DNA of 64,000 nt from a virus (lineage: Duplodnaviria > Caudoviricetes). The notes under the pieces are model-generated. The model did not search any database, was not told the origin of the DNA, and saw nothing but the letters and a program-made list of their open reading frames with translations. How positions within the stretch are numbered: position 1 is the stretch's first letter; each line of letters begins with the position of its first letter. A program made the translations under genes and the position numbers. Location of the stretch: IMG/VR virus record IMGVR_UViG_3300033069_001378, positions 96,001-160,000 of that record. The stretch is one strand, 5' to 3'. Positions 27,192-31,010 of this stretch are shown here, in pieces.

Positions 27192-27372
27192 ATATTTTGC
27201 CCGATACTGCATATCTGATTTTTTTTCTTTCACAGATATTTGACACCATTGCCATGCTTAAGGGCTTGACGATCAACAGTAGTTTCTCTCATACACTCAG
27301 GCGAATGTATTGACACCGTACTGTTCAAGAGTCACCCCAAATGTCCGGCGAGAAGAATAAGAAAAATGAAAA

Positions 27373-27448
27373 TGGTGGATTCGACAGGACTTGAACCTGC
27401 AACAGCCCGCGTGCAAGGCGGGTACTCTCCCAATTGAGTTACAAACCC
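27373..27448 (-). tRNA. tRNA-Ala(TGC)
   Basis: CCCGC-CTTGCAC-GCGGG, G3-U70 pair, CCA. Confidence 0.95.
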
Positions 27449-27498
27449 ATTGCTAATAGCTTAGTCTAAATATGTCGCAATGTAAACTTTCGCTCGTA

Positions 27499-27759
27499 TC
27501 AACGACAATAATCAAACGTGCAAACATTTCCTGTGCCGTTTGTGTTTCGCTCACAAAACTCCAAAACCAAGACTTGTCCGCATGTACGGTTCCAGCATGA
27601 ATACTCAAAAGTTAGACCTTGAGTATTGTGAGCAACGCATGAGTACATTCTCTGTTGTTGACCAGAGGCACTTGCAGTCTTTGCAATAGGCAAAAAAAGT
27701 AAGCCCAAAGCAAGTACGAAAGCAAACAGAGCGATATTCTTGTTCTTCTTATTCTTCAT
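27499..27759 (-). CDS. Small secreted cysteine-rich protein
   Basis: Signal peptide (KKNK, hydrophobic core, ASA) and six Cys. Confidence 0.75.
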   Translation of the reverse strand: MKNKKNKNIALFAFVLALGLLFLPIAKTASASGQQQRMYSCVAHNTQGLTFEYSCWNRTCGQVLVLEFCERNTNGTGNVCTFDYCR

Positions 27760-27796
27760 TCTTATACCTTAACCGATTGATGATTTTATGTAAACA

Positions 27797-27973
27797 CTAT
27801 TCTACAATTACCCAAAGATTGTCTTCCGGTTCCATTGTCTCAATTGGATGAATCGATCTCCATCCTTGAGGGATTGGCATAGATGCCCAATGCCAAAGCC
27901 ATGATGCATCCGTTACCGAAAGATTAACGCAACCATGGGATCTTCTTGTTCCAAACTGGTCGTGCCAGAATGC
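27797..27973 (-). pseudogene. Displaced 3' end of the L,D-transpeptidase gene (58 codons + stop, no start)
   Basis: Translates AFWHDQFGTRRSHGCVNLSVTDASWLWHWASMPIPQGWRSIHPIETMEPEDNLWVIVE*, collinear with the C-terminus of 28714-29877. Confidence 0.9.
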
Positions 27974-28717
27974 TCAACTCATTTCTAGTGCGGTACGTAA
28001 TTTCGTTTCTATTTCTTCATCAAATCTTATTCTTAGAAGACGAATATTTGATGATAAGCAAAAATCGTCTTTTATGTGATCTCTCGTTCTAATGTTTGCC
28101 AAGTTTTGTTCAGCAGATATTCTTTTGCTATATGACATAGGCACATAATGTTGTCTGCCGTCGTATTCTATACACAAATTGTGGCTTGGCAAGTAAAAAT
28201 CAAATCTGAGTGGCTTCTTTGCCTTGCATTCTTTGAACACTTTTTGTTCAACGTAGTTCAGGTTGAAAGATTCAAGAAGCAACCTTATTTTTCTTTCTCC
28301 TTTTGATTCGTTGCATTTTGGACAACCATGCTTATCTCTTATCAGATTGGTTGGGTGTGCCTCAAATTGAGATTGATGCTTTTGACATATGACTACAACC
28401 TTTGTTTTATCATTTACATACTCTACTTTAGAGTAGTCGTACTTGTCTCCATGCATCTTTACACATTGTTCAATAAAAGTAGCTTGATTTTTTCTTTGAG
28501 AAACTGACATTTTAACTGCTGTGCATTTTTTGCAACCAACACCATTTATATGGTGCCTTGGTTGAATTAAGAATGGTCCATGTGTAGAGCACACAATCTT
28601 TACTTTACTGATTGCACAAGTATAATCAACATTTGAATAGTCATACAAATCACCGTGTTTTTCTTTAGCTCGATGAATGAACTTTTCCGTCGTGTATGAT
28701 TTGTAATTTGTTTTCAT
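27974..28717 (-). mobile_element. Free-standing homing endonuclease gene (two Cys/His repeats + Vsr/DUF559-like nuclease)
   Basis: HGD.YDYS.V.Y...KV...C..H...GC.KC twice; SKGE...FDFYL...IEYDGRQH...RD..K...C...LLRI; ATGA-coupled to the L,D-transpeptidase stop. Confidence 0.85.
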
Positions 28718-29877
28718 TCTACCACAACCCATAAATCATTTGTGTTTGGAGCGACGATAGGGTGTATCGAACGCCAACCAGGCGGTATTTCAATTTCAGA
28801 CCATCTCCATAACCATTCGGCGTCGCGAATGCTTAAGTTTACACATCCATGTGAACGGCGAGAACCAAAGGAATCGTGATAAAATGCTCCATGCAAAGCA
28901 ATAGCTTCATTGAAATACATAACCCAGGGTACGCCTTCAACAGAATACGGATGAGAACCTCCACCAACCATTTGAGTATACGTAATCTTTCTTCTAACTT
29001 GAAAGATTCCCGGTCTTGTTGGGTGACGAGCAGATCCAGAAGAGATCAAAGTTGCAAATGCCAAATGATCATTTCTATCATAGGCAGTTAGCACTTGTTG
29101 AGCTAGATCAACGTGAACCCATTGAGAGCCTCCAGGAACCTCTGTAGGGCGTTGTCTTGCGTAACCGAGTCGTACTGCGTTCCTGTCTTCTATGTAGCCT
29201 GTAGGCACCGTTATGGCTCCTCTAGCGTGCATGTAGAAGTCCACAGGAAACCTTTCGTACCTGTGAACCGTTCTCTGTGTTCCGCGAAGAGAATCTGTTA
29301 ACTGTGTGTCCCGAATTATGAAAAGAAAACCGCCAGCAGGAGGATTTTGCCAACCAGAAAACGTGCTTGGTTCAAAAACGTCCAATAAGTTTAAAGGAAC
29401 CTCTGTTCCGTTTGGTCGAACTAGAGCAGTTGGTGTTCTGTTAATGAAATAGAGTTCATCGCCGTGTCTTAACATTTGCTCTTCGTTGATATCAAAGGCA
29501 TGACGTCCTCTATATTTTGCCCAAATGAAGTTTTGCGGTCCATTTGCAATAAAGTGCGCTTCTCTTGTTCTTGTTGAAATTGGGCTTAAATATGAGAGTC
29601 TTGTGGCACCAAAAGGCACCAACTCTGCCCATGCGTTTCTGTCATCGCAAGAGGGTACGCATCTTGACACTTGCACAATGTCTCCAAAACGCAACAATGC
29701 CACCGAAGGACCGAAGTTGTCCAACGATGGCTTAACAAAAACGTCTTCCCTTGTTGATATCCAAAAATAGGAAGAGGAATTAGTTTGTTGCTCTTGAGAT
29801 AATGCGATGCTTGGAAAACTTAGCGAAGCGAGTAAAACTGCAATCAGAACATAGATTGATTTTGAATTTGTTATCAT
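28714..29877 (-). CDS. Secreted L,D-transpeptidase (YkuD family)
   Basis: Signal peptide; VHVDLAQQVL.AY, ISSG...TRPG.F, ALHGAF.......SHGCVNLS..DA.WL. Confidence 0.93.
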   Translation of the reverse strand: MITNSKSIYVLIAVLLASLSFPSIALSQEQQTNSSSYFWISTREDVFVKPSLDNFGPSVALLRFGDIVQVSRCVPSCDDRNAWAELVPFGATRLSYLSPISTRTREAHFIANGPQNFIWAKYRGRHAFDINEEQMLRHGDELYFINRTPTALVRPNGTEVPLNLLDVFEPSTFSGWQNPPAGGFLFIIRDTQLTDSLRGTQRTVHRYERFPVDFYMHARGAITVPTGYIEDRNAVRLGYARQRPTEVPGGSQWVHVDLAQQVLTAYDRNDHLAFATLISSGSARHPTRPGIFQVRRKITYTQMVGGGSHPYSVEGVPWVMYFNEAIALHGAFYHDSFGSRRSHGCVNLSIRDAEWLWRWSEIEIPPGWRSIHPIVAPNTNDLWVVVE

Positions 29878-29891
29878 ATAGATAACTATTC

Positions 29892-31010
29892 TCAGTTGTA
29901 CTCCGTTACGTTGCCCTTGCGCAAAAGATAATCGTCCGATACAGACTTAAGCTGGATTCGACCAAAAACTCCATCAAAGCGATGAGGATTGTTATCGAAC
30001 GTTACAGTACGCTCAACGACAGGACGAATGACAATGCCCTCACGGATACATGCAGCCTTTCCAGAAACAGTCTCCCTGCCATTGGTGTAAGTGTCTACAG
30101 CAGCCTTAGAGAATGGTCCACGGTAAACAACAGGAACTCGATCAAGCTTGCAAGCACTAAGAAACTGATCAAGCTCTGCATCGCTAAGGAAAGTGCCGCT
30201 CTCTCGTGATCCTGTGAATACGTCGAAAGCACGGAACTTCACCTCACCAGCAGTACAACCGTAAGCAAGATCCTGAACTCCGTTTCCGTAAATCTCACCG
30301 AGAATGAAGACAGGCTCCTTGTTATTGTCTCCAACTGCATCAACAATCTGCTTCTCAAGCTGATTTGCAATTCGGCAGTAAACGTTTCCTACGTTCTCAA
30401 GATGCTTGTGACGGAAGGAAAGACCCGAGGCTCCAAGACCCTTTGAGGAAACGGTAATACGTGAACCCTCTGGAAGATCCTCAAGCCAACTAGGATCATT
30501 AGGCATAACACCGATGCAACAAAAAGTACCGTGAAGCTTCTCACAGAATACAACCTGCTCACCGTCGTTGAAGAGATTCGGAAACTTCTTGAAGTTCTCG
30601 ATATCATACTTCATTGTACGATGCTGACCTGCATTCATGTAATTACCGCGAAGAGCAACAGGAATCTCTGGCTCCCACTTGACAATTCCAAGTGCCTCTG
30701 TAACGTCATCGCCCTCGTTCCAATCAGGACGAGCACGATAGACAAGACCCTGAGACACGATGCCACGAAGCTTTACAGCCTTGACCTTGTTTCCTCCCGG
30801 TCCCGAAAGCTTGTCAACAAGCCCAAGCTCCTCAAGAATGTTCTTGGGAACGAGTGAAGCCTCTGGAATGTAGGCAACAAGATCACCGTCCTTGAACTCT
30901 CCCTTGCGAACGATTGAACGATAATCACCAATTACCGCGAGTTCTAAATTGTCGGCAGCCGAGTGCTTTTCAAGCACAATCTTATATACTTTTACCTGAA
31001 AATTGCTCAT
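29892..31010 (-). CDS. RNA ligase (Rnl2-like/DRB0094 family with N-terminal OB domain)
   Basis: HSAADNLE, V.KGEF..GD.V.YIP, LRGIVSQGL, EKLHGT, GEIYG.GVQ, FDV, REGIVI, LKSVS..YL; start MSNFQ at 31010. Confidence 0.93.
   Translation of the reverse strand: MSNFQVKVYKIVLEKHSAADNLELAVIGDYRSIVRKGEFKDGDLVAYIPEASLVPKNILEELGLVDKLSGPGGNKVKAVKLRGIVSQGLVYRARPDWNEGDDVTEALGIVKWEPEIPVALRGNYMNAGQHRTMKYDIENFKKFPNLFNDGEQVVFCEKLHGTFCCIGVMPNDPSWLEDLPEGSRITVSSKGLGASGLSFRHKHLENVGNVYCRIANQLEKQIVDAVGDNNKEPVFILGEIYGNGVQDLAYGCTAGEVKFRAFDVFTGSRESGTFLSDAELDQFLSACKLDRVPVVYRGPFSKAAVDTYTNGRETVSGKAACIREGIVIRPVVERTVTFDNNPHRFDGVFGRIQLKSVSDDYLLRKGNVTEYN

Follow-up and report, generated by a model that had tools for sequence, protein, structure and literature searches.

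The window analyzed here is a stretch of 64,000 nucleotides that corresponds to bases 96001-160000 of a single 252,526-base contig with a GC content of 42%. The contig carries tRNAs as well as baseplate-type and nucleotide-metabolism genes, and the genome is that of a large uncultured phage. The stretch is present in riverine, freshwater, and wastewater metagenome runs. Distant homologues that bear names are Myxococcota and Chloroflexota proteins, and the peptide patterns used retrieved no relative from GTDB genomes. The locus is composed of the following features:

29877-28714, minus strand: L,D-transpeptidase (LDT) gene, 387 aa (Pfam YkuD, E 2e-19)
28890..29877, minus strand: resident LDT body, codons 1-330, up to His329 (28893-28891)
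27976..28889, minus strand: mobile insert of 914 bp, absent from the related loci L028/L029 and L030, where the flanks are joined
28714..28887, minus strand: replacement LDT 3′ end, 57 codons and TGA, with an S-H-G-C motif that contains the nucleophile Cys345 (28845-28843)
27974..28717, minus strand: putative homing endonuclease, 247 aa
27797..27973, minus strand: orphan of 58 codons and TAG, without a start codon of its own, the displaced native 3′ end
28886..28902, minus strand: 17-bp stretch ATTGCTTTGCATGGAGC between the nearest flanking SNPs

The insert consists of the replacement gene end and the nuclease gene and is wholly coding, with zero non-coding bases. Its ends can be slid along shared GAGC/GAGCATT bases. 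As the first-pass annotation had described, the breakpoint falls inside the HG...SHGC motif. It lies one codon past His329 and 15 codons ahead of Cys345, and the catalytic cysteine is therefore supplied by the insert, whereas the catalytic histidine belongs to the body. The S-H-G-C motif is found in both the working end and the orphan. The orphan is unannotated and repeats the last 57 residues of the LDT (YkuD E 3e-6); its similarity to the gene end (tblastn E 6e-21, z 46 against shuffles) bears out the earlier description of an orphan catalytic C-terminus behind the nuclease, at 27973-27797. It is free of internal stops over its 58 codons, again as annotated, and is the only C-terminal orphan of its kind in the genome.

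The nuclease ATG overlaps the LDT stop as ATGA, an arrangement noticed in the first pass that suggests translational coupling of the nuclease to the LDT. The nuclease TGA, in turn, takes its GA from a Gly codon of the target. The orphan lies in frame with the nuclease behind this single TGA (27976-27797, minus strand), which is probably a by-product of the nuclease stop using the target Gly codon. Read-through of the TGA would yield a nuclease-orphan fusion. Promoter and terminator matches within 27400-30000 are at chance level. The orphan is followed by a small gene and, directly downstream of that gene, by a tRNA gene (27448-27376, minus strand). Further along, the first 120 residues of an ORF at 25911-25330 (minus strand) resemble the start of a DNA adenine methyltransferase, and its tail seems unrelated, as if the ORF were truncated or fused; the matching stretch is not common to the related locus L025.

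The LDT takes on a layout of an N-terminal hydrophobic helix, which is a probable export signal, a beta-rich middle, and a YkuD domain (PF03734, residues 252-360, 70.9 bits against a cut-off of 23.4). A histidine and a cysteine form the catalytic pair of YkuD enzymes. Both H329 and C345 are conserved, the hybrid is full length when compared to 26 aligned relatives, and its catalytic pair was aligned to that of Ldtfm. The best folds matched by the hybrid model (pLDDT 86.8) are L,D-transpeptidases. About 20 full-length relatives occur largely on phage-like contigs, and the literature search found no published study of such phage LDT enzymes. Amidoligase, glutamine-amidotransferase-like, and GGACT genes lie near the LDT, with which they may form a cell-wall modifying module.

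The endonuclease

The nuclease gene has a GC content of 34%, compared to 42% in the genome, and its product matches PHROG homing-endonuclease families. Residues ~6-135 harbor two DUF723-type zinc modules (PF05265 on the same protein), which are followed by a Vsr-like domain (residues 136-247) with E141, D173, H190, and D213. All four residues are present in the family consensus. The first-pass annotation had called the enzyme Vsr-like, and the fold search agrees: the best matches of the C-terminal domain in the model (pLDDT 94) are Vsr (1cw0; Z 11.8, rmsd 3.0, 106 aligned) and I-Bth0305I (3r3p; Z 11.2, rmsd 2.7, 91 aligned). By inspection, the nuclease appears to have the Vsr/I-Bth0305I catalytic residues, with the EDxHD residues assigned by motif and spacing relative to D196/H213/D222 of I-Bth0305I rather than by residue-level superposition. 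Sequence searches of the PDB with the nuclease returned nothing, including no sequence-level match to 3R3P.

Group I introns and split-intein loci are known to harbor Vsr-like homing nucleases (PMC2677866, PMC3239194). Together with the in-frame position of the orphan past one TGA, this would fit an intron-like or recoding element, in which RNA or protein splicing or read-through rejoins body and orphan, or in which read-through of the TGA produces a nuclease-orphan fusion. Such an element is extremely unlikely here. The insert has no non-coding base that could accommodate a ribozyme, no Rfam intron family is matched even at E 1, and the candidate splice points lack the U...G ends of group I introns. 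Additionally, there is no intein motif, and the LDT is complete without splicing.

The nuclease family comprises more than 5000 relatives, none above ~50%. At 22 other loci of DUF723 nucleases and other LDT loci, no orphan was detected across the nuclease at E 1e-3, a check in which short orphans can be missed, as the 22-codon orphan of a ligase was in the first genome scan. The habit of stranding a gene end therefore belongs to the LDT element and not to the nuclease family. One DUF723 gene (L038:4270-4872, plus strand, the same place as L032) follows the distant phage LDT P0008 (46%). It encodes 200 aa of zinc modules without a nuclease domain, is accompanied by no orphan, and is perhaps an independent, decayed invasion.

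Native and replacement gene ends

A protein search retrieved relatives at 93%, 84%, and 61%. P0002 (loci L028 and L029) lacks the nuclease within an unchanged gene order, and it ends in the orphan sequence, not in the working end. Its end agrees with the orphan in 57 of 58 residues (90.4% nt, with 13 synonymous codon changes), and this type of end is 98% identical to the orphan at the amino acid level compared to 67% for the working end. The window LDT body is 87.7% identical (nt) to the empty L028 and 88.7% to the filled L025. The likeness seen in the body continues into the orphan, given the values of 87.7% and 90.4% to L028. Over 44 codons, the working end reaches only 57-62% nt to the orphan and to the L028 and L030 ends, and of its first 44 residues, around the nucleophile, 12 are changed. 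P0003 (L030) is empty as well, and its likeness is 79% to the orphan compared to 68% to the working end. In L028, L029, and L030, the 914 bp are absent and the flanks are joined exactly at the junction.

Separate trees of the body and the ends gave the same picture. In the body tree, the window sequence clusters with P0001 and P0002 (100/99). Among the ends, the distance between the orphan and that of P0002 is close to zero, whereas a long branch carries the working end; no grouping of the working end with the body was found in nuclease-free relatives. Judged from these alignments and trees, the gene originally ended in the orphan sequence, and the working end arrived with the nuclease.

A donor of the replacement end was not found by protein searches (best match 67% in a region search and in phmmer against 1.84 billion representatives), by tblastn of metagenome contigs, or by degenerate DNA patterns in viral contigs. 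In the trees, the long branch of the replacement end attaches within or next to the same small phage clade, a weakly supported placement (alternative AU p 0.38). It may come from an unsampled relative or from a duplicate that diverged along with the nuclease.

Probable movement of the insert and competing explanations

The haplotypes found comprise two filled alleles and only one close empty one. The second filled allele, P0001 (L024-L027 and L047; several runs, one haplotype), carries the same insert. When the window is compared to this L025-type allele, the gene body differs at 112 of 990 bases and the orphan at 8 of 177 (8 synonymous, 0 non-synonymous), whereas the insert shows 0 differences in 914 bp. 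The Fisher p values for this comparison are 4e-7 and 2e-10. The two alleles are otherwise ~89% alike, their neighboring genes are 74-92% alike, and the tract in which they are identical spans 931 bases (28902-27972). Of the two options named in the first-pass annotation, a recent event is thus supported. An assembly chimera of two related phages could be imagined for metagenomic data in which related strains co-occur. The arrangement is found in single contigs from independent runs and assemblers and in two distinct haplotypes, which leaves this explanation next to no chance.

All eight orphan differences are synonymous, which has a probability of ~1e-5 under neutrality, and they therefore date from a time when both ends were still in use. 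After a single old insertion, dozens of synonymous changes would be expected in the insert as well, which favors recent capture. It thus appears that the same insert entered two diverged live alleles recently, with each allele stranding its own end.

It had also been proposed in the first pass that the orphan is still in use, and it could act as a silent alternative catalytic end that is kept under selection and switched in by excision or recombination at GAGCATT. The orphan has neither a stop nor a frameshift, and its protein is identical in both filled alleles, with the 8 changes being synonymous only. These properties are explained by the recent independent captures, and recent homing into two diverged alleles does not need an orphan that still works. 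The distribution of synonymous changes (8 in 59 orphan codons compared to 0 in ~305 insert codons) also speaks against a silent end. The repeat shrinks to GAGC in the second allele, no recombinase adjoins the locus, and the longest word shared by the two ends is 8 bases, which makes them a poor substrate for switching. In contigs of four runs over 27300-30200, which drop rare variants and would thus miss rare excision, no joint skipping the insert was seen. The proposed use of the orphan is not upheld, and a selected silent end is very unlikely.

GAGCATT is present at both junctions, as annotated (28889-28883 and 27975-27969). It was considered as a target-site duplication and rejected, as GAGCTTT stands in place of the second copy in the L025-type allele; the repeat is best read as shared Gly-Ala-Phe coding sequence. 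A transposon with target-site duplication was likewise rejected, since the repeat is not exact in the second allele and a transposase is missing.

The nearest differences between the filled alleles are located at 28903 and 27971. In at least one capture, recipient sequence was therefore kept to within 13 bases of the insert on its upstream side and 3 bases on its downstream side. A recipient SNP kept only 3 bases beyond the insert would mean an unusually short co-conversion by the standard of T4 homing, which is a point against the homing reading. The 17-bp bracket would hold the cut or exchange point in the empty allele, and if there is one cut site, ATTGCTTTGCATGGAGC (28902-28886) would contain it. 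Filled and empty alleles do not differ in the upstream bases, and the part of the site that distinguishes them would therefore lie after the junction, where recoding of the new end sets in at its third codon. The bracket contains no convincing palindrome. A pair of 3-bp arms, GCT-N8-AGC, was tried as a site and discarded, being at chance level and kept in the filled allele.

The narrow exchange also bears on the role of the nuclease. Ordinary recombination, or a selective benefit of the new end, could have spread the insert, with the nuclease as a passenger or cutting elsewhere. Near the nucleophile, the new end does depart from the native one in 12 of its first 44 residues, and the sites cut by free-standing phage nucleases can be remote from the nuclease gene, as with T4 SegF and SegG. 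An identical tract that stops no more than 13 bases upstream and 3 bases downstream would, however, rarely result from unguided crossovers, and the nuclease is intact and unchanged in both lineages. A passenger nuclease is accordingly rated as highly improbable.

By far the most probable reading is that the insert is a splicing-free homing element that replaces the gene end, with the orphan being merely the displaced native end. The reaction would start with cleavage of insert-free LDT alleles by the nuclease at or just before the active-site His-Gly-Ala codons. In a mixed infection, the break would subsequently be repaired from an insert-bearing genome, as in the general homing mechanism, which would copy in the 914 bp. 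The two homology arms would be the gene body and, beyond the insert, the orphan. The insert is headed by what would be a recoded, diverged copy of the last 57 codons, and since it begins with a replacement end, the LDT is full length with a complete His/Cys pair, as can be read from the sequence. The altered sequence past the junction would render the filled allele no longer a target, and the nuclease, whose start overlaps the stop of the repaired LDT gene, would be translated by stop-start coupling. The recipient's own end would be pushed downstream as an orphan at each capture, where it would be silent as an enzyme and act as the downstream homology arm for the next round. An extended version has a small chance of being correct: exchanging the half of the active site that bears the nucleophile would give the LDT a changed specificity, and cutting of the rival allele would make the element a gene drive for this variant in co-infection, or the stranded end could be switched back, so that the phage has two catalytic ends.

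Further terminal swaps and known systems

The next gene upstream of the LDT, an RNA ligase, shows a mirror-image (5′) swap, and a shuffle-controlled genome scan detected another 5′ swap in an ATP-dependent DNA ligase:

31781-31716, minus strand: stranded native start of the RNA ligase, 22 codons
31689-30982, minus strand: HNH gene at the RNA ligase
31010, minus strand: recoded start of the RNA ligase, overlapping the HNH end
L042:2932-1090 (genome C1 26932-25090), minus strand: 5′ swap of the ATP-dependent DNA ligase

L025 and L028 are without the HNH gene at the RNA ligase, and the ligase begins with the orphan sequence there. The L025 lineage has the LDT insert and lacks the RNA ligase insert, which means that the inserts move separately. 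At the DNA ligase, a stranded 46-codon start is accompanied by a 177-aa HNH-like gene (no Pfam match) and a diverged replacement start. The three swap nucleases (LDT, RNA ligase, and DNA ligase) have no mutual similarity. Three swaps beside unrelated nucleases in one genome suggest a routine strategy in large phages that has been missed by annotation.

Outside the window, at 249339-251284 of genome C1 (plus strand), two paralogous nuclease-like ORFs each lie between 20-21-bp direct repeats, one of which is the 3′ end of tRNA-Gly(TCC). The replace-the-end logic extends to tRNA genes at this place. Within the window at 17003-15782 (minus strand), two zinc-ribbon ORFs (17003-16797 and 16072-15782) flank a GIY-YIG-like ORF (16767-16363). 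Both zinc-ribbon ORFs look whole and are probably paralogues rather than an orphan.

Terminal swaps make enzyme genes chimeric inside the catalytic domain and can mislead gene trees. The likeness of the LDT to Ldtfm (6FJ1) and LdtMt2 lies in the YkuD domain and in the His...S-H-G-C-x-N pattern, which is kept in both the working and the orphan end. This predicted enzyme differs from them in being phage-borne and in its N-terminal region.

Homing without introns is represented in phages by the T4 seg/mob genes. The usual account of homing nucleases is that they invade conserved coding sequence only when an intron or intein provides cover. The LDT nuclease enters an active-site motif without either by supplying the rest of the gene. 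The literature search found nothing on gene-end replacement in phages, with partial coverage of subscription papers.

CapR/DUF723 zinc-finger homing endonucleases have been described as free-standing genes in ICP1 and its relatives (PMC10448857). They share with the LDT nuclease the free-standing gene, the DUF723 modules, and a position at the boundary of phage genetic exchange. They differ in carrying T5orf172 or HNH domains and in lying between genes, and they are not known to come with a duplicated gene end.

The Vsr-like “EDxHD” nucleases, I-Bth0305I and those of the fractured genes (PMC2677866), share with the LDT nuclease N-terminal DNA-binding modules and insertion into a conserved motif of a phage gene. 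The modules are DUF723 zinc fingers in the LDT nuclease instead of NUMOD, and the host gene is shielded by a replacement end, whereas I-Bth0305I and the fractured-gene nucleases shield it by a group I intron or a split intein. With I-Bth0305I, the LDT nuclease has in common the C-terminal Vsr-type fold and the D173-H190 spacing, which equals that of D196/H213 (17 residues). The cut made by I-Bth0305I falls directly next to the place of its insertion, and an allele that is already filled is left intact (PMC3239194); the 17-bp bracket suggests a cut beside the junction here as well. Vsr-like homing endonucleases of this class act as homodimers on a pseudopalindromic site next to the insertion point.

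The closest counterparts are the mORFs of fungal mitochondria, a layout with demonstrated mobility that forms “gene hybrids” with atp6 in Allomyces macrogynus and with atp6, atp9, cox2, and nad3 in Glomus sp. (PMC3630166). They share with the LDT element the order of core, in-frame inserted C-terminus, endonuclease ORF, and displaced native C-terminus, the insertion in the 3′ part of the gene, and an empty allele in relatives. Their stranded native end also matches the empty relative with synonymous changes only (PMC3630166), and the DNA likeness of the two ends is comparable (63.5% in Glomus atp6, 57% in the phage LDT). In contrast to the mORFs, the LDT element resides in a phage and not in a mitochondrion, its nuclease is DUF723/Vsr-like rather than LAGLIDADG or GIY-YIG, the catalytic nucleophile of an enzyme belongs to the exchanged part, the target is an accessory cell-wall enzyme, and the searches gave no donor lineage. 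The LDT element thus works like the mORFs without being one of them, and with this fungal mitochondrial precedent the mechanism is not new to biology. As an example of it, the phage locus is unusually complete, with an empty allele, two filled alleles whose inserts are identical, and flanking SNPs by which the exchange is confined to 17 bp. On its sequence evidence, it is a real, recent, and splicing-free homing cassette that replaces half of a catalytic motif and has its nearest parallel in the gene hybrids of fungal mitochondria.
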